Assembly (NCBI GenBank): GCA_964347455.1
Contig: CAYFYU010000012.1
Location: forward strand, 6,730 to 60,224
Origin: an uncultured Spirochaetota bacterium
Lineage (GTDB): Bacteria > Spirochaetota > B62-G9 > DRHN01
Reading direction: 5' to 3'
Length of the DNA stretch: 53,495 nt
Below the pieces are notes generated by a model. That model made no database searches. It saw only the letters and a list, made by a program, of their open reading frames with translations, and was not told where the DNA came from. Positions 14,524 to 26,548 of the stretch are shown one piece after another (positions within the stretch are counted from its first letter, which is position 1; each line of letters starts with the position of its first letter). The position numbers and the translations under genes were made by a program.

Positions 14524-14736
14524 ATGAAAAAAGGAATACATCCTGAATACAAGCCGGTTGTCATTACCTGTGCATGCGGTAATAAAATCGAGACACGATC
14601 AACCGTCAATCTAACCCATGTTGAAATATGTTCTGCCTGCCATCCATTCTTCTCTGGAAAGCAAAAACTTGTCGACACTGCCGGAAGAATCGAGAGATTC
14701 AGAAAAAAATATAACATAAAAAATACTGAGAAATAG
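14524..14736 (+). CDS. rpmE: 50S ribosomal protein L31
   Basis: 70 aa. [20 protein letters not shown]...[13 protein letters not shown] is the canonical L31 sequence with its Cys motif. Confidence 0.95.
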
Positions 14737-15339
14737 TCCTCTTTAAGTACCGCTTTTTTTATGAATTATGGACCTCCCCACCAGCAGAGCGGTCGTCTCC
14801 TACAATAACCTCAATTTAGGCACATAAAATTTCTGTTCATTGGCGAGTTGCAGTGTTCCTAAGAATAGCATACGATACGTTGTAAAAAATCATACATACC
14901 TGTATACTTTTTCATACTTTTTATGGTCCTAACTTATACAATATCCCAGAAGTAAGCCCCTCCTATCCTCTAAATTGTCCTTTCTGTTAAGTTCTGTCAC
15001 TATCCAACTTCATTTCCCATAACCATTCACAGAATCAATTTAAGTTTTCACAATCATGTAAAAGACATATTATTTATTAATATATATATAATTAAATAAA
15101 TTTCATGTCTATATTTTTGAAAGAATATTTGTCTCAGTTGAGAAACTGAGGTTGTACATTCCTTCTAATGTAAAGAAGGCCTCTTGGAATCAATTACCCT
15201 ATTGTAACTAGTTGTATCCATTTTACCTCAAAAAGTTATAAAATTCTATACATTTTAGTTGTAATAAAGACTGGGCAATTTGATGATTTTATAATTCTTT
15301 ATATTATTAGACTTAAAATTAGGAAATTTTGTTAAAAAG

Positions 15340-18136: not shown

Positions 18137-18442
18137 ATGCAGAAGAAAAACCCATCTCAAAAAGATAAGTGGACAGTACAAAAAATATATTGTGCAAATT
18201 GTTTACACTGTGTTGTTTTTAAGCAACCCATCGAAGGTGCAGACGCGTATGTATTACGTGTACGTTGTAGCATGGGATTATGGAAGAAAAGATCCGGAGA
18301 GGAAAAAGTATATAAATACTTTTCAATAATACGGAGAACACCAGACAAGTGCAATTTATACGATCCTATGGGTGAGGAGAAGTCTTTTATAAAGGAGTTG
18401 CGAAAAAGCTTGCCGGTAAAAGACGAGATTTATTCATACTAA
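18137..18442 (+). CDS. Hypothetical Cys-rich small protein (101 aa)
   Basis: ORF only. It contains CANCLHC plus two further Cys. No family recognised, and another frame overlaps it (18048..18329). Confidence 0.35.
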   Translation: MQKKNPSQKDKWTVQKIYCANCLHCVVFKQPIEGADAYVLRVRCSMGLWKKRSGEEKVYKYFSIIRRTPDKCNLYDPMGEEKSFIKELRKSLPVKDEIYSY

Positions 18443-18495
18443 CTGTAATTTGACATATTTATTTTGAAACCTCCAGTGTGGTTCAAGGATATTTT

Positions 18496-18918
18496 GTGAG
18501 GCACCGTTTCTTTCCTGCTTTTATTATCGTATCTCTCTCTATACTATTCATTACCCTTTCCTGTGCATCGAAGAAACCGGTGCTCTACAAGAATGGAGAG
18601 CCGCTTTCAATTACAGACTATGAAAAAATTGCGCAAAAAGAGTTTGACGAAGGGCGATACGGTAATGCTATTGAGGTTTATCAGGCGATAATCACTCATT
18701 ATCCGGAAAATGCAAAGGCACTCGCGTGGGCTCATTATGAAATCGGCTACTGCCATTATATGAAAGATGATTATGAACAGGCCAGAAAATATTTTAGAAT
18801 AGTTGTAAACGAGTATCGGGAGCCAGCTGCAACAAAGCTTGCCGAAAAGATGTTGGACAGAATTATTGAACTGGAAAATCAGAAGAGTGAGAAAAAGAAA
18901 AGGAAAAAACAAGAATAA
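18496..18918 (+). CDS. TPR-repeat lipoprotein (hypothetical)
   Basis: Track ORF is 18478..18918. GTG 18496 lies 6 nt after AAGGA. The signal peptide ends in the lipobox-like ITLSC. TPR-like repeats are present (GNAIEVYQAIITHYPEN, AHYEIGYCHYMKDDYEQARKYF). Confidence 0.6.
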   Translation: MRHRFFPAFIIVSLSILFITLSCASKKPVLYKNGEPLSITDYEKIAQKEFDEGRYGNAIEVYQAIITHYPENAKALAWAHYEIGYCHYMKDDYEQARKYFRIVVNEYREPAATKLAEKMLDRIIELENQKSEKKKRKKQE

Positions 18919-19597
18919 AACTCTCCTAAAAATAATTTTATTCTGCATCACTATCTGTATAATTCCTTTCTGTGTATTTCTTTTTATCAATTTTTCTATA
19001 CTGTTTGAACAGTACAGAACGTTCACCCGTGAAATGTTCTGGGCCTCTGCTGGCTTCATTTGTTTCATTTTTATCTTTTTTATATTTGGAGCACCTGTAA
19101 AGAGCTATGTGCTGGAACATGAATTATCCCATTTACTATTCGCCTTCCTCAGCGGAACAAAAATTAAAACTTTATCTCTGAAAAGAAGAGATGCATTTGT
19201 AGAAACAGAGAGAGTAAACTTGTTTATTGCTCTTGCACCTTACTCGGTGCCGCTCTATACAGTTTTGATTGTTTTGCTCCATAAAATAATCGTTGTATTT
19301 ACGGAATCCGCACTAATAAACAAACTATTTTATTTTTTATTTGGAATAACGTTGTCGTTTCACTTTGTTGCCACATTTCATTATTTACAGCTGGACCAGC
19401 CGGATGTAAAGCGATATGGATACTTCTCTTCGTTGATCTTAATCATTACCTGGGCGATTATCATTATTTCGATAATTTTCGCTCTCATGTTCAAAGATAT
19501 ACAGTTGCTGAAGTTTTATCGTTCATCCTTTAAGGAAGCGATAGGATTTTACAAAAGTTTTGGTATATTCTTAACGAATGTATTCACCAGATTGTAG
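18839..19597 (+). CDS. Polytopic membrane protein with an HExxH motif (putative zincin-type metallopeptidase); start uncertain
   Basis: 252-aa ORF with a TTG start that overlaps the previous gene by 80 nt. The next in-frame ATG is at 19034. It has several hydrophobic segments and the motif VLEHELSHLLF. Confidence 0.5.
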   Translation: MPKRCWTELLNWKIRRVRKRKGKNKNKTLLKIILFCITICIIPFCVFLFINFSILFEQYRTFTREMFWASAGFICFIFIFFIFGAPVKSYVLEHELSHLLFAFLSGTKIKTLSLKRRDAFVETERVNLFIALAPYSVPLYTVLIVLLHKIIVVFTESALINKLFYFLFGITLSFHFVATFHYLQLDQPDVKRYGYFSSLILIITWAIIIISIIFALMFKDIQLLKFYRSSFKEAIGFYKSFGIFLTNVFTRL

Positions 19598-19613
19598 TAG
19601 GGCTAAATTTCGC

Positions 19614-19642
19614 TTGACATTTACAGATTATCCATTTATTAT
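19614..19642 (+). promoter_or_regulatory. Sigma70 promoter candidate upstream of the hydrogenase cluster
   Basis: TTGACA (19614-19619), a 17-nt spacer, then TATTAT (19637-19642). Confidence 0.5.
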
Positions 19643-19647
19643 TTAAA

Positions 19648-19671
19648 AGATTGTTAATTTTTAAACAATCT
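19648..19671. promoter_or_regulatory. Inverted repeat AGATTGTT-N8-AACAATCT just downstream of the -10; candidate operator
   Basis: The 8-bp perfect arms at 19648-19655 and 19664-19671 are read directly. Confidence 0.35.
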
Positions 19672-19941
19672 ATTTATTTGTATAACAATAAATTAAATAT
19701 TGTCAGGCGATTTTCACTTGCTGCATTGTAGGGTGAGATTGGAGAGAAAACCCACCAATTATTCTACAAAATTATCACATCAAATAATATGTGGAGAAGG
19801 GGACAGTAGCCTCCTGTCAATTTTCAGAGGAGTAGATCCTTATCCATCGCCCTTTTTTTCTATTAACAGGATAGCAGTAACGCAGTTTTAAATGTCATAC
19901 AGTAAGTTATTGGGAAATGATACAACTTTAAGGAGGGAACC

Positions 19942-20826
19942 GTGTCGTCTAAAGTTTTTGAATTTCCAGTAGTTTATATAGCGGGATCTGCGTGCTCGGG
20001 ATGTTCTGTTTCACTTCTCAATGCCTTGAACCCCAGTATTCAGAATTTACTGCTTGATCCGATAGTTCCCGGGAAACATGTTTCCCTAAAATTTCATGCC
20101 ACAGTGATGGCTGGGCAGGGAGAGCCGGTTATTGAGGTATTAAGAGATATTTCAAAAGAAAAACCGAATGAATTTATTCTCCTCATTGATGGATCAATTC
20201 CTGCAGCCGAAGACGGCCTTTACTGCAGGCTGGGTGAGCTCGATGGAAAAGAGCTTACAATGAAGGATATGTCAGCTGACCTGGCTCGAAAGGCCACCAG
20301 TGTTATTGCAATCGGTACATGCGCTTCGTTCGGCGGCATCCCTTCTGGATATCCCAATCCTACTGGTGTAAAATCTGTTGCAGCTTTTCTGAGTGATGAG
20401 GGTATTGAGAAACCGGTAATCAACATTTCAGGCTGTCCACCACACCCAGACTGGATGATTGGTACGATAGCGGATGTCCTCATTAATGGACTTCCAACAG
20501 CGGACAAACTGGACGATGCTCTGAGACCGAAAACATTTTTTGGAGAGCTCATTCACGATAACTGTCCACGCCGCGGTTTTTTTGATTCGGGTCAATTTGC
20601 AAAAAAGACCTCTGACCCGGGTTGTCTCTATGAAATCGGATGCAAAGGTCCTGTAACCCATGCTGATTGCCCAACGAGGAAATGGAATAATGGGGTTAAC
20701 TGGTGTATTGGATCAGGAGCACAATGCATTGGATGTGTTGAACCCGATTTTCATGACATGCTTGCTCCAATGTTCGAGAAGCTCGATGAATCGGCTCTTG
20801 ACAGGTTCAAGATTCAGACTCGTTAA
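19942..20826 (+). CDS. [NiFe]-hydrogenase small subunit, no Tat signal (cytoplasmic)
   Basis: GTG start after AAGGAGGG. It has the proximal cluster motif GSACSGCSVSLLN. The C-terminal pattern HDNCPRRGFF...GCLYEIGCKGPVTHADCPTRKWNNGVNWCIGSGAQCIGCVEPDF indicates three Fe-S clusters. There is no RRxFxK leader and no C-terminal TM anchor. Confidence 0.9.
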   Translation: MSSKVFEFPVVYIAGSACSGCSVSLLNALNPSIQNLLLDPIVPGKHVSLKFHATVMAGQGEPVIEVLRDISKEKPNEFILLIDGSIPAAEDGLYCRLGELDGKELTMKDMSADLARKATSVIAIGTCASFGGIPSGYPNPTGVKSVAAFLSDEGIEKPVINISGCPPHPDWMIGTIADVLINGLPTADKLDDALRPKTFFGELIHDNCPRRGFFDSGQFAKKTSDPGCLYEIGCKGPVTHADCPTRKWNNGVNWCIGSGAQCIGCVEPDFHDMLAPMFEKLDESALDRFKIQTR

Positions 20827-20846
20827 AGAAAAGATGGAGGATTAGT

Positions 20847-22406
20847 ATGGCAACCAAAATATCTATCGATCCAATTACAAGGATTGAAGGACATATGAAA
20901 ATAGAAGCAACCGTGGATGGTGGAGTTGTTAAGGATGCACAATGTTCGGGTACTCTATTTCGCGGCATTGAAATAATTCTGCAGGGGAGAGACCCGAGAG
21001 ATGCACAGCGAATAGCGCAACGAGTGTGTGGAGTCTGTCCTGCGGTTCATGGAACAGCTGCTACTCTGAACCTCGACAGTGCATTTGGTATCGCAGATAA
21101 GGTACCTGACAACGGAAGGATAATCCGTAATCTTATTCTTGGTGCAAACTACCTGCAGTCCCATATTTTGCATTTTTATCATCTTACAGCACTTGATTAT
21201 GTTGATGTTACAGCAGTCAGTGATTATAGTGGGGACGATCCGGATATGAAGTCACTGAAGAATTTCATCCTGAGAGGTGAGCTTGCTCCATTCACACCCC
21301 GCTATGAGGGGGGTTACCGATTCGATAAGGAAACAAATCAAAAACTTGTGAAACACTACCTCACCGCACTTGAGATGAGGAGACTTGCCCATGAAATGCT
21401 TACCCTGTTCGGTGGGAAAATGCCTCATAATGCGAGTATCGTTCCTGGCGGAGTTACTGAACATCCGACGATAGATAAGATTACCGGTTTTCTCTGGAGA
21501 CTGAACAGAATACGGGATTTCATCAATGATGTTTATATTCCTGATGTTATAAAGGTTGCTCAGACTTACTCAGAGTATTTTGGCATTGGTTCCGGACCTG
21601 GTAATTTTCTCTCCTTTGGTGTGTTCGATCTTGACGGAAAGAGTAGCGATTATGCTAAGAGGGATCGATTGTTTGAACAGGGCGCCGCTGAGGGTTTGAG
21701 TACACTGCATCCTCTAAATACGGGTAACATTACCGAAAGTGTGAAGCACTCATGGTACGAAGATGATGCACCAAAACATCCACTGGAAGGGGAAACTAAA
21801 CCCAGTGCCCGGAAATCGGACGGCTACAGCTGGATACGATCTCCTCGATACGATGGGAAGGTTTATGAGGTTGGTCCACTTGCACGTTGGGCAGTTTCCT
21901 ATCTTGCCGGAAATAAAAGGGTGAAGACCGCACTTGAGAGCTGCATTGGTGATCTGAAGATTGAAAAAGAAGATTTGAACTCAGTGCTAGGCAGGCATGC
22001 TGCTCGAGCGCTTGATGCAAAGCTCGTTGCAGATGAAATGGCAGATTGGATACTTCAGATTAAGCCGGGGGAACCGGTATGTGCTGAATACGAGATTCCT
22101 GAAGTATCCGAAGGGATGGGAATAGTTGATGGACCGAGAGGAGCACTGGGGCACTGGATACGGATCAAAGACAGGAAAATCGAAAGATATCAGCTCGTTG
22201 TACCGACTACATGGAACGGTGGCCCCAAGGATGAAAGGGGTCAATATGGTCCGATGGAACAGGCACTGCTCGGAACAAAGGTGAAGGATCCAGAAAATCC
22301 TTATGAACTGGTTCGAATCATTCGGTCCTTTGATCCGTGTCTCGCCTGTTCAATCCATACGCTGAATTTAAAGGGAGACGGGATCGCTTCACTGCGGGTT
22401 GTATAG
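20847..22406 (+). CDS. [NiFe]-hydrogenase large subunit
   Basis: 519 aa. The N-terminal motifs are RIEGH and RVCGVCPAVHG. The C-terminal motif DPCLACSIH is followed by a 15-aa extension, which is the substrate for the endopeptidase. Confidence 0.95.
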   Translation: MATKISIDPITRIEGHMKIEATVDGGVVKDAQCSGTLFRGIEIILQGRDPRDAQRIAQRVCGVCPAVHGTAATLNLDSAFGIADKVPDNGRIIRNLILGANYLQSHILHFYHLTALDYVDVTAVSDYSGDDPDMKSLKNFILRGELAPFTPRYEGGYRFDKETNQKLVKHYLTALEMRRLAHEMLTLFGGKMPHNASIVPGGVTEHPTIDKITGFLWRLNRIRDFINDVYIPDVIKVAQTYSEYFGIGSGPGNFLSFGVFDLDGKSSDYAKRDRLFEQGAAEGLSTLHPLNTGNITESVKHSWYEDDAPKHPLEGETKPSARKSDGYSWIRSPRYDGKVYEVGPLARWAVSYLAGNKRVKTALESCIGDLKIEKEDLNSVLGRHAARALDAKLVADEMADWILQIKPGEPVCAEYEIPEVSEGMGIVDGPRGALGHWIRIKDRKIERYQLVVPTTWNGGPKDERGQYGPMEQALLGTKVKDPENPYELVRIIRSFDPCLACSIHTLNLKGDGIASLRVV

Positions 22407-22877
22407 ATGAAAAACAGGATAGCTATTATTGGAGTTGGAAATCAAATTATGGGTGATGAGGGTGCTGGGATTGAAACACTTCAGGTGCTTCGACAGATGG
22501 GTTGCCCCGAAGGGGTTGAACTCATTGACGCCGGCACTGCTTTTTTCAGTATAGTTTCAGATCTAAAAGATTTTGAGAAGCTGATCATTGTGGATGTCGT
22601 ACGAGGTGGAAAGCCCCCAGGTACTGTGTACCGGTTTGAAATGGAGGATGTAAAAAGGGGTGAACTTTTAATATCGCTTCATGATGTAGGGGTTATAGAT
22701 TCTCTGAAGATGGAAACTCTTGTCGGTAAAATTCCTGAAGAAATCGTATTCTTCGGAATTGAACCACAGAGGGTGGAGCTTTCCACCCAACTTTCAGAAC
22801 AGATAAAAAAACGAATAGGTTATCTCGCACAGAAAATTCTGAATGAGGTCTCAAGCTTCACTGGTCTAAATAGCTGA
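22407..22877 (+). CDS. Hydrogenase maturation endopeptidase (HybD/HyaD/HoxM family)
   Basis: 156 aa with IIGVGNQIMGDEGAGIE, IIVDVV and SLHDVG, the conserved metal-ligand pattern. It abuts the large-subunit stop codon. Confidence 0.85.
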   Translation: MKNRIAIIGVGNQIMGDEGAGIETLQVLRQMGCPEGVELIDAGTAFFSIVSDLKDFEKLIIVDVVRGGKPPGTVYRFEMEDVKRGELLISLHDVGVIDSLKMETLVGKIPEEIVFFGIEPQRVELSTQLSEQIKKRIGYLAQKILNEVSSFTGLNS

Positions 22878-23000
22878 CATAGTAAGGGGTGCATAAGTTC
22901 TTAATATTTTTATTTCGAAGTTAATAATAAGACACCTTCTATATTTACAGAGGGTACAAATAGATCACCAGAAACTGATTATGTGGGAGGAGGAAGCATA

Positions 23001-23714
23001 ATGGTAGTCAATGTTCCAAAACCGGATAAAGAGCTCTTTGACATGCTCGCTGAATATCGGAGTCTTTTCATTGTAGCCTGTGGGGGATGCCCCGTAGGTT
23101 GTGAGTCAGGCGGACATGAGCGTGCTGAGGAACTTTCCGACATGCTCGAAAAAAAAGGAAAAAAAGTAACGGGGTGTACTGAGATAGATTTTCTATGTAA
23201 CAAGGTGCTCGTAGGTAAAAAACTTCGTTATAAACTGGACAAGCTTAAAAAGGCTGAAACAATACTGGTGATTTCTTGCGGAATTGGCGTACAGGCGACT
23301 GGTGCCATAGTCGATATTCCTTCACTCCCGGCTAATGATACCCTCTCAAGCCAGGGAATGCAGGGATTATGGCCGTCCAATGAACGCTGTGCTGGTTGTG
23401 GGACCTGCTATCTGGCACTGACCGGTGGGATATGTCCCATTACCTCCTGCTCCAAGAGCCTGCTCAATGGTATGTGTGGTGGCCAGCATGACGGTCTCTG
23501 CGAAGTTGAAGAAAACAGGGATTGCGGGTGGTATCTTATTTTTGAACGACTAAGGGATCTAAAAAAGCTCGACAACTTGAAAAAGATACCAAAGCTGCGG
23601 GATTTTAGAAAACAGGATGTTTCAGATAAAGAGAGGAACACAACCCGATGGGCCCTTGAAAAAGAAACTGTATACGTTGCTCAAAAGACTACTCCAGACG
23701 AGGAGGGGGAATAA
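23001..23714 (+). CDS. metV: MetV-type Cys-rich protein (methylene-THF reductase C-terminal-domain family)
   Basis: Track ORF is 22983..23714. ATG 23001 follows GGGAGGAGGAA. Cys clusters are CGGCPVGCESGG and CAGCGTCYLALTGGICPITSCSKSLLNGMCGG...CEV...CGW. It lies 2 nt upstream of metF. Confidence 0.75.
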   Translation: MVVNVPKPDKELFDMLAEYRSLFIVACGGCPVGCESGGHERAEELSDMLEKKGKKVTGCTEIDFLCNKVLVGKKLRYKLDKLKKAETILVISCGIGVQATGAIVDIPSLPANDTLSSQGMQGLWPSNERCAGCGTCYLALTGGICPITSCSKSLLNGMCGGQHDGLCEVEENRDCGWYLIFERLRDLKKLDNLKKIPKLRDFRKQDVSDKERNTTRWALEKETVYVAQKTTPDEEGE

Positions 23715-23716
23715 AG

Positions 23717-24598
23717 ATGAGTAAATTGCAGGAGAGTCTAAAAAAGGGAAAGTTCACCATTACTGGTGAAGTAGGCCCCCCGAAAGGCATAGATCTGGAA
23801 CACTGCTGGAAGGAGGAAGTTGATTATATTCGTGATCGAGTTGTTGCGATCAATGTCACTGATAATCAGAGTGCTGTGATGAGGGTAAGCTCGCTGGGTA
23901 TCTGTGCTCTTCTGGCAAAAGAAGGATTGGAACCCATATTACAGATAACCTGCAGGGATAGAAACAGGCTTGCAATTCAGGCTGATGTCCTTGGAGCATA
24001 TGTTAACGGTATTCGAAATATTCTCTCAATTACCGGTGATCATACTACTGCTGGCGATCACCCGGAGAGCATACCCGTATACGACCTTGATTCTGTGAGT
24101 CTCCTTTTAGCGATGAACTGCCTTAAGAATGGAAAGGATCTTGCAGGCGAGGAGCTTGAGGGAGTTCCCTCTGATCTGTTTATAGGAGGCGTGGTCACTC
24201 CAGGTGCCGATCCTATTGAAATGCAGCTCATCAAGATGGAGAGGAAGATTGAATCAGGAGCGCAGTTTTTTCAGACGCAGGCTATCTATGATTCGAAAAC
24301 TTTCGAGTCCTTCATGCAAAAGGCATCGAAGTTCAAGGTACCAATTCTCTGCGGAATAGTAATCATTAAGTCGGCTGGTATGGCCAGATATATGAATAAT
24401 TTCGTTCCCGGTGTCTTTATTCCCGATGATATGATACAAACCCTATCAGCTGCACCGAAGGAAGAACGGGCTATGAAGAGTATTGAGATGATGACTGAGT
24501 TTATTAAAGAGATTACTCCAATGTGTCAGGGACTTCACATCATGGCTATGGGTTGGGAAAAATACGTTCCGATATTGCTCGATATGTGCGATCTTTGA
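23717..24598 (+). CDS. metF: Methylenetetrahydrofolate reductase, small MetF type
   Basis: 293 aa. TGEVGPPKG, AINVTDNQSAVMR, ITCRDRNRLAIQADVLGA and SITGDH match the MTHFR TIM-barrel family. Confidence 0.85.
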   Translation: MSKLQESLKKGKFTITGEVGPPKGIDLEHCWKEEVDYIRDRVVAINVTDNQSAVMRVSSLGICALLAKEGLEPILQITCRDRNRLAIQADVLGAYVNGIRNILSITGDHTTAGDHPESIPVYDLDSVSLLLAMNCLKNGKDLAGEELEGVPSDLFIGGVVTPGADPIEMQLIKMERKIESGAQFFQTQAIYDSKTFESFMQKASKFKVPILCGIVIIKSAGMARYMNNFVPGVFIPDDMIQTLSAAPKEERAMKSIEMMTEFIKEITPMCQGLHIMAMGWEKYVPILLDMCDL

Positions 24599-24619
24599 AA
24601 TAGATGTTCCAATACTTTT

Positions 24620-24693
24620 TCGGGCTAGTGAGATTTGAACTCACGACCTCACGGTCCCGAACCGTGCGCGCTACCAAACTGCGCTATAGCCCG
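24620..24693 (-). tRNA. tRNA-Pro (anticodon CGG)
   Basis: The reverse complement CGGGCTATAGCGCAGTTTGGTAGCGCGCACGGTTCGGGACCGTGAGGTCGTGAGTTCAAATCTCACTAGCCCGA folds as a 74-nt cloverleaf. The anticodon loop is TT-CGG-GA. Confidence 0.9.
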
Positions 24694-24734
24694 TCTCAAG
24701 ATTACCTGTTAGATTCTACCGTCTTATTATAAAA

Positions 24735-24767
24735 AGCTCACTATCGTAATAGTGAGCTTTTTTTTTC
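24735..24767. terminator. Bidirectional intrinsic terminator between tRNA-Asp and tRNA-Pro
   Basis: AGCTCACTAT (24735-24744), loop CGTA, ATAGTGAGCT (24749-24758). A5 precedes it and T9 follows, so each strand sees a U-tract. Confidence 0.7.
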
Positions 24768-24801
24768 TTTATGTTAAAAGTGCCCCTCTGTATATAGCCA
24801 T

Positions 24802-24876
24802 CGGGAGCGACGGGAATTGAACCCGCGATCTCCGGCTTGACAGGCCGGCGCGATAACCAGACTTCGCCACGCCCCC
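24802..24876 (-). tRNA. tRNA-Asp (anticodon GTC)
   Basis: The reverse complement GGGGGCGTGGCGAAGTCTGGTTATCGCGCCGGCCTGTCAAGCCGGAGATCGCGGGTTCAATTCCCGTCGCTCCCG folds as a 75-nt cloverleaf. The anticodon loop is CT-GTC-AA and the discriminator is G. Confidence 0.85.
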
Positions 24877-24893
24877 AATTAACAGCAGTCGGT

Positions 24894-24922
24894 AACATAC
24901 TGGATTAGAGATGGTTTGTCAA
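24894..24922 (-). promoter_or_regulatory. Sigma70 promoter candidate for tRNA-Asp
   Basis: On the minus strand: TTGACA (24917-24922), a 17-nt spacer, then TATGTT (24894-24899). Confidence 0.5.
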
Positions 24923-25005
24923 GATAATTTAAATACAGGATTAGTAACCCTTTAGGCCCACAAGGAGCACCTGTGGGCCTATAGTTCTTAGAGGTCGCTT
25001 AAGCT

Positions 25006-25515
25006 TTAAATGGGCAGGCTATTTGGATCAATTGCAAATGCTGAGGCATCAAAGGTAGTTCCATCTATCGTAATCCTACCACTCAAACTAATATCCTGAC
25101 CAATAACAATTGTCACGCGAAAATCGATCGATGATACATCGGCACCGGAAAAGCTCAAATTTCCAGACATTGTCATACTGATTTCACTTGTTGTCTCATC
25201 AATTGCAAAATCTGATATTGCAAAAAAGCCTGTAACAGTAATGTTTGACACAGGATCGGTATAATTGGTGAAGGTAATTGTAATTTGTGTGGGCGGTGTA
25301 GCTGGTTCAGGACAAAGTTCAGGATCGATTTCAATACCAGCCGGTAATGAACAAAGATCGTCAATGCCCCCAAATACAGGTCCCATTGCAGCACCAAATT
25401 TTGCAAGATCTTCGTTTGTTGGTTCTTCTAGACCCCCGTTGTCGCAGCTCAGGAACAATGCCAGTGTAATAATAATTACTCCCATAACAACTAACCATCT
25501 GGTTGTCTTCTTCAT
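25006..25515 (-). CDS. Hypothetical lipoprotein
   Basis: 169 aa. The signal peptide ends LALFLSC (lipobox). The mature part is Thr/Ser/Asp-rich and looks beta-rich. No family recognised. Confidence 0.6.
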   Translation of the reverse strand: MKKTTRWLVVMGVIIITLALFLSCDNGGLEEPTNEDLAKFGAAMGPVFGGIDDLCSLPAGIEIDPELCPEPATPPTQITITFTNYTDPVSNITVTGFFAISDFAIDETTSEISMTMSGNLSFSGADVSSIDFRVTIVIGQDISLSGRITIDGTTFDASAFAIDPNSLPI

Positions 25516-25834
25516 ACCTCAAAGTCTCCTTTCGCTCTAAGCATTTTAAGTAATTATCCTACAAGTTTTGGTGATTGTCAAAATATTTTGGAATTTGATT
25601 TCACTCCCTCGTATTATATGTATTGAGGACTCTTCAATCATAGTTAGTTCTTTAGCTCATCAAATTGAAAAAGTTAATTATTTATATATTTTTCATAAGT
25701 ATTACCAATGTAAATTATAAACCAAGAACCAATAAGCATTAAAATTAAAGCCCACTTTTACCGATGTAAAAGATGAGCAGTATAACGTTCCATAATGGGA
25801 CTGGTGTTTATAGAAATGAAAAAATCCCCAATAC

Positions 25835-26548
25835 ATGGAAATTGAAATGAATCTCAAGAAAGATAACGGTCAGTTTAGAAAATGGTATTTGTTTGTTCTA
25901 TTTCTTTTACTCATTCCTCTCCTCTTGTCATGTGCAACAACAGGAAGTATGTACAGAACTGAAGAAAAGAACAGCAGGGGCGTCTGGCACAGGGTTCAAG
26001 AAGGACAAACTCTATGGCGAATAGCGAAAACCTATCGTGTAACACTGGAAGAGATAAAAGAAGCCAATGATATAGTCGATGTAGTACACGTTGCAAAGGG
26101 GACATGGATCCTAATACCAAACGCCGATCGGATTCTCTATGTTCAAGGCAATGTGGATACTCTTCATGAAAAAGAAGCCGATCTTGGTTTCATGTGGCCA
26201 TTAAAGGGTGAAGTTGTTAATTCCTTTGGTAAGAAGGAGAATGATTTTTTATACGGAATTGATATTAAATCGACAAGAAATCAAGATGTGGTAGCAACTC
26301 TTGAAGGGAAAGTGGTACTGTCCGGTACGATAAGGGGGTATGGGACCACGATTATCATTGAGCACGAAAATAATTACTGCAGTCTCTATTCGAAGAACAT
26401 AAAAAGCCTGGTCAAAGAGGGACAGCTTGTTGAGAAGAACAGCGTAATCGCAAAAGCAGGAACGTCTACTTCAGTTACAGGCGATATTGTGCACTATGAG
26501 CTCTTCTTTAAGGGTAGACCGGTAAATCCACTCTATTATTTGCCTTAA
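25835..26548 (+). CDS. NlpD-like lipoprotein: LysM domain plus degenerate M23 (LytM) domain
   Basis: Lipobox LLLSC. The LysM domain reads HRVQEGQTLWRIAKTYRVTLEEIKEAN. The M23 fold reads GIDIKS...GYGTTIIIEH...HYELFFKGRPVNP. The expected Zn-ligand His of HxxxD is Tyr (LYGIDI), and the first His of HxH is lost (DIVHYE). Confidence 0.8.
   Translation: MEIEMNLKKDNGQFRKWYLFVLFLLLIPLLLSCATTGSMYRTEEKNSRGVWHRVQEGQTLWRIAKTYRVTLEEIKEANDIVDVVHVAKGTWILIPNADRILYVQGNVDTLHEKEADLGFMWPLKGEVVNSFGKKENDFLYGIDIKSTRNQDVVATLEGKVVLSGTIRGYGTTIIIEHENNYCSLYSKNIKSLVKEGQLVEKNSVIAKAGTSTSVTGDIVHYELFFKGRPVNPLYYLP

Follow-up and report, generated by a model that had tools for sequence, protein, structure and literature searches.

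What supplies the electrons to a methylenetetrahydrofolate reductase that lies directly behind a hydrogenase with no redox partner beside it? The question is raised by a 53,495-nt stretch of DNA, here called the window, from an uncultured Spirochaetota bacterium (GTDB lineage B62-G9; DRHN01; assembly GCA_964347455.1, contig CAYFYU010000012.1, positions 6,730 to 60,224 of the forward strand). Between positions 19942 and 24598 of the window, five plus-strand genes encode the small and large subunits of a [NiFe]-hydrogenase (hydS and hydL, together HydSL), a maturation endopeptidase (hydD) and the two subunits of a MetVF-type reductase (metV and metF). We consider it reasonably probable that these genes form one functional unit, a cytoplasmic H2:methylene-tetrahydrofolate (methylene-THF) oxidoreductase in the Wood–Ljungdahl pathway's methyl branch.

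Purified two-subunit MetVF carries flavin mononucleotide (FMN) on MetF and two [4Fe–4S] clusters on MetV, has no NAD(P)H site, and accepts electrons from a low-potential [4Fe–4S] donor, and from reduced ferredoxin or flavodoxin (PMC8515935, PMC8760232). Ferredoxin as the donor leads to a negative ATP balance for growth on H2 and CO2, and the in vivo electron donor of MetVF is an acknowledged open problem (PMC8760232). Published schemes recognize type I (MetF), type II (MetVF), type III (RnfC2–MetVF) and type IV (HdrABC–MvhD–MetVF) enzymes, and an uncharacterised NuoEFG 'X type' has been noted (PMC8515935); no hydrogenase type figures among these type I–IV/X classifications.

The association of hydrogenase and reductase genes extends far beyond the window. 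We scanned one genome per species for relatives of HydL and kept the best 80 of the 323 loci returned, all from metagenome-assembled genomes (MAGs), and scored linkage by tblastn of the five proteins against these loci, on the same strand and within ~6 kb of hydL. metV and/or metF adjoin hydL in 74 of the 80 loci, or 74 of the 76 that are informative; in four of the six loci where metVF was not seen (L010, L014, L019 and L053) the contig ends right after the hydrogenase, and the only two that do not have metVF, L070 (Melioribacteraceae) and L080 (Planctomycetaceae), are also the only two of the 80 whose enzymes bear a twin-arginine translocation (Tat) leader. The carriers are labelled Spirochaetota, Chloroflexota (Dehalococcoidia and Anaerolineae), Armatimonadota, Ca. 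Poribacteria, Planctomycetota, Ca. Latescibacterota and Desulfobacteraceae, so that the adjacency remarked on in an initial annotation of this DNA recurs in at least seven phyla of uncultured anaerobes. Only the five genes are common to all phyla; the flanks differ, and the genes upstream of the cluster in the spirochaetes are missing elsewhere. Within the spirochaete family synteny extends over the whole neighbourhood, so that adjacency there is uninformative when taken alone. Of the 55 loci that have metV directly after the protease gene, 45 have a spacer of at most 30 nt, and in 17 the protease stop and metV start overlap by exactly 4 nt. The same order, S–L–protease–V–F, accompanies P0007, a distant Tat-less small subunit from a Joint Genome Institute (JGI) metagenome (46% identity). 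Four other small subunits with short N termini, from the set at 39–48% identity, show no metVF order: one lies beside a cytochrome b, one has a 602-aa and one a 485-aa large subunit, and in one the contig ends too early. This mixed context indicates that the metVF association is clade-specific.

The hydrogenase linked to metVF differs from its exported relatives at both ends of the small subunit. The hydS open reading frame (ORF; 19942–20826; 294 aa; PF01058 and PF14720) starts 17 residues before the CSGC motif, contains no RRxF, and is preceded by a GGAGG ribosome-binding site and then by ~340 nt of non-coding DNA only, whereas the leaders of Tat-bearing relatives measure ~40–50 residues. We conclude that HydS is without a Tat leader because its alignment to the mature Desulfomicrobium baculatum [NiFeSe] small subunit (290 bits) begins at mature residue 7. 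The small subunits of L070 and L080 carry RRxF leaders (TRREFVELLG... and TRRSFLEAGVG...) and a C-terminal extension of ~60–80 residues with a hydrophobic stretch, which is missing from HydS; three Tat-bearing spirochaete small subunits have short C-terminal tails only.

HydS has 12 cluster ligands, sufficient for three [4Fe–4S] clusters: C18, C21, C127 and C165 for the proximal cluster, C243, C255, C262 and C265 for the medial, and H205, C208, C228 and C234 for the distal. The fourth medial cysteine ('NWC') is of the [NiFeSe] type and gives an all-[4Fe–4S] arrangement. HydL (20847–22406; 519 aa; PF00374; NCBIfam NF033181 at 702.6 bits against a cutoff of 600) contains the L1 (RxCGxC) and L2 (DPCxxCxxH) motifs, with C61/C64 and C498/C501 as [NiFe] ligands followed by H504, and has Cys rather than selenocysteine (Sec) in the active site. 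Its tail extends 15 residues past H504, whereas mature PDB chains stop at the position aligned with residue 504, and the start codon of hydD (22407–22877; 156 aa), which encodes a HycI/HybD-type maturation endopeptidase (PF01750, TIGR00072), abuts the hydL stop. The initial annotation had described a small subunit with the full three-cluster Cys/His pattern and neither twin-arginine leader nor C-terminal anchor, and a large subunit with a cleavable extension and its own endopeptidase, catalytic rather than sensory; each of these points is borne out.

Both subunits find their closest matches in group 1a (the top PDB entries are periplasmic [NiFeSe]/[NiFe] enzymes, and NCBIfam agrees). They share with this group the L1/L2 motifs and a three-cluster small subunit with a His-ligated distal cluster, but have neither the Tat signal peptide nor the cytochrome c3/b partner or membrane anchor. 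The resemblance to group 2b sensors fails on the 15-residue tail of HydL and the adjacent protease, as well as on the window's lack of any kinase gene, and it is because of this tail and dedicated protease that we regard HydSL as catalytic. As judged from its sequence, HydSL is a matured and catalytic enzyme of the cytoplasm, derived from a group 1a-like hydrogenase; its ancestors would be periplasmic, [NiFeSe]-like members of that group, and with the Tat leader and anchor lost HydSL would mature and remain in the cytoplasm.

Loss of the leader coincides with linkage to metVF. In all metVF-linked small subunits recovered by a motif scan (53 loci), only ~13–16 residues precede the first Cys motif. 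Maximum-likelihood trees place the 79 Tat-less HydL proteins on one side of a single branch from the 12 Tat-bearing ones (SH-like approximate likelihood ratio test (SH-aLRT) 91–98), the latter being those of L070, L080 and ten spirochaete enzymes, which amounts to one change of state. Within Spirochaetota, HydL proteins at least 70% identical to that of the window occur only in its own family and order. The window HydL is 60–63% identical to Chloroflexota proteins as against 45–52% to the Tat-bearing enzymes of other Spirochaetota, suggesting that the unit was transferred between phyla, and the metVF-linked enzyme of this spirochaete family is probably an import. Most other spirochaete [NiFe] hydrogenases of this type, such as those of L091, L093 and L097, are Tat-exported and encoded in the order protease–HydS(Tat)–HydL; upstream in loci of this kind lies a small gene whose product has Cys–His motifs and by eye resembles a c-type cytochrome. 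L100 holds a Hyb-type cluster.

In the reductase half of the unit, metV (23001–23714; 237 aa; PF12225) encodes the Fe–S subunit and lies immediately upstream of metF (23717–24598; 293 aa; PF02219), which encodes the flavin/folate subunit, 2 nt separating the stop codon of one from the start of the other; relatives have the two genes in this order too. MetF has the methylenetetrahydrofolate reductase (MTHFR) fold, and MetV has 10 invariant and 3 near-invariant cysteines and an NGxCGG motif, as expected of MetVF-type enzymes. No hdrA, hdrB, hdrC or mvhD, the mark of the type IV enzyme, lies beside metVF in the window. The AlphaFold2 model of MetV has a predicted local distance difference test (pLDDT) score of 84.8; MetV has no sequence match in the PDB, and the model matches only generic α/β domains (template modelling (TM) score ~0.33), which is uninformative on docking.

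Several carriers place the unit inside Wood–Ljungdahl gene clusters. The order in L025 is fhs–folD–(hydS–hydL–protease–metV–metF)–acsD–cooS–acsB and in L033 (Planctomycetia) fhs–folD–(the five genes)–cooS–nuoF–acsB, and further loci have acsB/acsC, folD or fhs beside the unit. The AcsB/CdhC domain (PF03598) was found in 38 of 42 carrier genomes, the four others being small MAGs, and in neither of two Tat-bearing control genomes. Wood–Ljungdahl genes, which the initial annotation had thought worth seeking elsewhere in the genome, are indeed present: the host assembly (4.67 Mb, ~90% complete) encodes fhs and a cooC–cooS–...–acsB–acsC–RACo-like–acsD–acsE cluster, whose gene names, other than AcsB, Fhs and NuoF-like, were read from sequence and context, together with RnfD/E-type genes, hypD and three further [NiFe] hydrogenases (one Hox-like, a small group-3-like pair and a membrane-bound group 4 enzyme). 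Short runs of N interrupt cooC-like genes (contig C35, ~480–500 and 14711–14990) and the NuoG-like gene (contig C24, ~31640); they read as X in translation and reflect bases that were masked or withheld, not frameshifts.

The host genome also shows what usually stands in front of metVF. Each of its three metVF sets directly follows an input module of a different kind. The second and third are on contig C24 (31051–34903 and 37412–41172): one of these two follows NuoG-N-terminal/NuoE/NuoF-like genes and corresponds to the 'X type', and the other, on the minus strand, follows a 704-aa GltD–MvhD fusion and is accompanied by a kinase and two response regulators. On contig C158 a fourth metF stands alone, behind a methyltransferase-like gene. 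The neighbour of metV is thus repeatedly an electron-input module, and in the window that slot is taken by the hydrogenase. Canonical diaphorase-type modules do exist elsewhere in the genome, but each adjoins its own separate metVF copy.

Other lineages vary this arrangement. Dehalococcoidia have a variant with a shorter MetV and a MetF paralogue (MetF'), and in Anaerolineae the same Tat-less hydrogenase lies between a MetV-like gene and MetF'; only in these Anaerolineae relatives do HdrABC/MvhD-type genes stand beside it. In L023 (1491–17324) this larger cluster encodes, in order, an HdrA/GltD flavoprotein (1,330–1,490 aa), a MetV-like protein, HydS, HydL, a histidine kinase that binds cyclic nucleotide monophosphate (cNMP), MetF', two response regulators, MetV, MetF, an HdrCB fusion and FolD. 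It is also found in L020, L027, L031, L037, L041, L043, L049 and L051, often after acsC–acsE, and may represent a bifurcating, H2-linked version of the enzyme.

The layout of the five genes suggests that they are transcribed together. The best plus-strand promoter-like match across 19400–25900 is a TTGACA-17-TATTAT site upstream of hydS (19614–19642; 11 of 12 positions, a consensus match only), followed by an untranslated leader of ~300 nt (19643–19941) that ends in the GGAGG ribosome-binding site, matches no Rfam family and does not fold significantly (z = −1.35 against shuffles). Inside the five-gene unit we found no promoter-like site better than chance and no internal terminator. The gap between hydD and metV measures 105 nt to a GTG at 22983 or 123 nt to an ATG at 23001. 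The ATG, which stands behind the ribosome-binding site GGAGGAGG, is in our reading of the alignments the real start, because this is where the proteins of relatives start (MxV..KP) and because a stop codon lies just upstream of it in L002; the spacer (22878–23000) is therefore 123 nt. It contains no terminator-like hairpin and no significant fold (z = +0.49), in keeping with the terminator-free gap of ~120 nt that the initial annotation had described, and no plus-strand ORF of at least 20 codons; the sole ORF touching it (24 codons, minus strand, 22820–22894) lies mostly within hydD. A search for riboswitches or attenuators in the leader and the gap gave no Rfam match, the two tRNAs beyond metF being the only ones returned, and folds no better than those of shuffled sequences. 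The first terminator after metF is a two-way one (24731–24762), a 14-bp hairpin between an A-run and a T-run. Two minus-strand tRNA genes flank it within 24620–24877, tRNA-Pro(CGG) (24620–24693) between metF and the terminator and tRNA-Asp(GUC) beyond it, and read-through from metF would be antisense to tRNA-Pro before the terminator is reached.

In the mechanism that we propose, H2 would be split at the [NiFe] site of HydL and its electrons would pass along the three [4Fe–4S] clusters of HydS to the two of MetV and on to the flavin of MetF, which would reduce methylene-THF to methyl-THF. HydSL would thereby take the slot filled in other MetVF reductases by RnfC2, HdrABC–MvhD or NuoEFG-like modules. 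The gene order suggests that HydS and MetV touch directly, and reduction of methylene-THF would be the physiological direction. Methylene-THF reduction is the most exergonic step of the Wood–Ljungdahl pathway. From the published potentials of H2 (−414 mV) and methylene-THF (−200 mV) (PMC9586279), we computed a standard free-energy change of ~−41 kJ/mol for the reaction with H2 and ~−13 kJ/mol at 1 Pa H2. As the value is still negative at 1 Pa, the step could run at very low H2 without reduced ferredoxin or NADH.

Several observations weigh against this proposal. If H2 drives the reduction directly, no energy is conserved, a high price for an acetogen, and the two other metVF sets of the host, with its Hox-type NAD-linked hydrogenase, mean that the route is not obligatory. 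The HdrA/GltD protein and HdrCB fusion of the Anaerolineae imply, in some lineages, wiring beyond a four-subunit enzyme. With its 123 nt the spacer belongs to the family's longest, as do those of L002, L013 and L073, and it holds a weak promoter-like match (9 of 12 positions, no better than in shuffles); together these could allow separate transcription of metVF. Finally, no HydS–MetV fusion protein was found among the 150 best representatives. The long matches in that search were fusions with an aldo/keto reductase or with pyridine-nucleotide-disulfide oxidoreductase/BFD domains, or Tat-bearing proteins with C-terminal extensions. Two of them (P0051, 711 aa, and P0110, 809 aa) have a group-1-like [NiFe] small subunit fused at the N terminus to cytoplasmic domains, in one case an aldo/keto reductase and in the other a pyridine-nucleotide-disulfide oxidoreductase with a BFD-like [2Fe–2S] domain, which suggests that further hydrogenases of group 1 type are 'hard-wired' in the cytoplasm.

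A fuller version of the proposal takes HydSL and MetVF to be the four subunits of one stable enzyme. As such it would count as a fifth type of methylenetetrahydrofolate reductase and, among [NiFe] enzymes, as the counterpart of the hydrogen-dependent CO2 reductase. Its origin would be a single event, in which a periplasmic hydrogenase of group 1a lost the signal for export and came to dock on MetV; horizontal spread through subsurface anaerobes would have followed. Its carriers could run the methyl branch directly on H2 at very low partial pressures, and perhaps in reverse where H2 is below a pascal. We give this version an even chance of being right.

Among the alternatives, one keeps the shared pathway and dispenses with the complex: HydSL would reduce a soluble low-potential carrier such as ferredoxin, flavodoxin or thioredoxin, to be oxidised by an ordinary type II MetVF, and the operon would be shared for no reason other than the common pathway. 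Type II enzymes do use all three carriers in vitro when these are reduced, and both the long spacer of the window and the lack of HydS–MetV fusions would fit. Electron transfer from H2 to ferredoxin is nevertheless uphill at environmental H2 unless bifurcation is involved, and the five genes common to all phyla include none for a carrier. The translational coupling of protease and metV in 17 loci, with Tat loss that always accompanies linkage, fits a fixed partnership better, and we regard a soluble carrier as unlikely.

The same complex could instead work mainly in reverse, oxidising methyl-THF and evolving H2 where the Wood–Ljungdahl pathway is used oxidatively on acetate or methyl groups and consumers keep H2 very low. 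Small subunits of the all-[4Fe–4S], [NiFeSe]-like type, to which HydS belongs, are known to produce H2 well; subsurface Dehalococcoidia and Anaerolineae, for which oxidative use of the pathway has often been proposed, account for many of the carriers; and a type III enzyme can be pulled backwards by product removal. The energetics are less accommodating, as the transfer of electrons from methyl-THF (−200 mV) to H2 is uphill even at 1 Pa (~−266 mV) and, from standard potentials, would require H2 below ~0.1 Pa or very skewed folate ratios; known syntrophic acetate oxidisers have been proposed to need reverse electron transport at this step. We therefore judge a mainly reversed reaction improbable.

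Whether hydrogenase and reductase are neighbours by coincidence, or for regulatory reasons only, is a question that the initial annotation had left standing: the hydrogenase would then serve some other, unlinked acceptor and metVF would be an independent unit. Within the window and its family alone the point could be argued, given the promoter-like match in the hydD–metV gap and the synteny of the entire spirochaete neighbourhood. Across at least seven phyla, however, just these five genes are kept while the flanks differ, the Tat-less, metVF-linked enzymes are a single clade, and L025 and L033 embed the unit in Wood–Ljungdahl operons; we reject coincidence as very improbable. It is scarcely credible that HydSL senses H2 and regulates the expression of metVF in the manner of the group 2b enzyme HupUV: in Anaerolineae and some Dehalococcoidia, hydL and the metF paralogue do have response regulators and a cNMP-binding histidine kinase between them, but sensor hydrogenases have no cleavable tail or dedicated endopeptidase, both of which are retained here, the window has no kinase gene, and the kinase and regulator genes of the host accompany a metF' paralogue without any hydrogenase.

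The surroundings of the cluster offer no other redox partner for HydSL. As the initial annotation had it, none of the cluster's neighbours within the window is a cytochrome, diaphorase, Hdr/Mvh or ferredoxin gene; they encode a tetratricopeptide repeat (TPR) lipoprotein, a membrane protein, the two tRNAs, an M23/LysM peptidase, sigma factors, a phosphoribosyltransferase and cNMP-binding proteins. The upstream genes at 18137–19597 were considered as hidden partners and ruled out, being conserved in the spirochaete family only and having TPR or membrane features. The first ORF there (18137–18442, 101 aa) has a CxxCxxC motif and no Pfam match; it too is conserved only in the spirochaete family and is not part of the cross-phylum module. 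On the other side, a 169-aa lipoprotein-like ORF on the minus strand (25006–25515) matches nothing in Pfam or NCBIfam and recurs in none of the 80 related loci. The rest of the window appears to be of the housekeeping kind, with flagellar genes, rho and a penicillin-binding protein (PBP1), as judged from sequence and without a family search.

HydSL–MetVF combines two known kinds of enzyme, a MetVF reductase that would have a hydrogenase for its input module and a group 1a hydrogenase of a cytoplasmic branch, and the combination is barely noted in print. The initial annotation knew of no characterised example of this wiring, and in a full-text literature search we indeed found no biochemical description of it and nothing on Tat loss, the clade or its spread. 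The adjacency itself is mentioned once, in one sentence of a 2024 study of Ca. Bipolaricaulia MAGs from the Great Salt Lake, which suggests group 1a HysAB beside MetVF as the electron supply for reduction (PMC11287216). That paper does not deal with Tat loss, the clade, cross-phylum spread, operon structure or biochemistry.

On the hydrogenase side, the nearest characterised systems are those of D. baculatum (1CC1) and Desulfovibrio vulgaris HysAB, which give the best PDB and NCBIfam matches for both subunits and share the three-cluster small subunit, the fourth medial cysteine, L1/L2 and HybD-type C-terminal processing. HydSL differs from them in having no Tat leader, anchor or cytochrome c3/b partner, in carrying Cys for Sec, in lying beside metVF and in forming its own clade. 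On the reductase side, the unit resembles the type II enzymes of Clostridium ljungdahlii, C. aceticum, Eubacterium callanderi and Thermoanaerobacter kivui in having metV directly before metF, a MetV with two predicted [4Fe–4S] sites and NGxCGG, a MetF without an NAD(P)H site, and an Fe–S donor; unlike these, whose in vivo donor is unresolved, it has a dedicated hydrogenase immediately upstream. With type III (Acetobacterium woodii), type IV (Moorella thermoacetica) and type X (NuoEFG) it shares an electron-input module beside metVF and Fe–S docking, but the input would be H2 through a [NiFe] site rather than NADH through a flavoprotein. The closest parallel in logic is the hydrogen-dependent CO2 reductase (HDCR) of A. 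woodii and T. kivui, in which a hydrogenase is hard-wired through Fe–S subunits to a Wood–Ljungdahl reductase with no soluble carrier; HDCR consists of an [FeFe] hydrogenase and a formate dehydrogenase and is not homologous.

If the proposal is correct, the hydrogenases described here would define a cytoplasmic sub-clade within a hydrogenase group regarded as periplasmic, and a hydrogenase hard-wired to MetVF would be a new solution to electron input, absent from the type I–IV/X schemes. It would answer, in one natural way, the question of what donates electrons to MetVF physiologically, and with only five genes the unit is compact enough for a test by heterologous expression. H2 thresholds and energy yields would then have to be remodelled for the abundant uncultured Dehalococcoidia, Anaerolineae, Spirochaetota and other sediment anaerobes in which the unit occurs.

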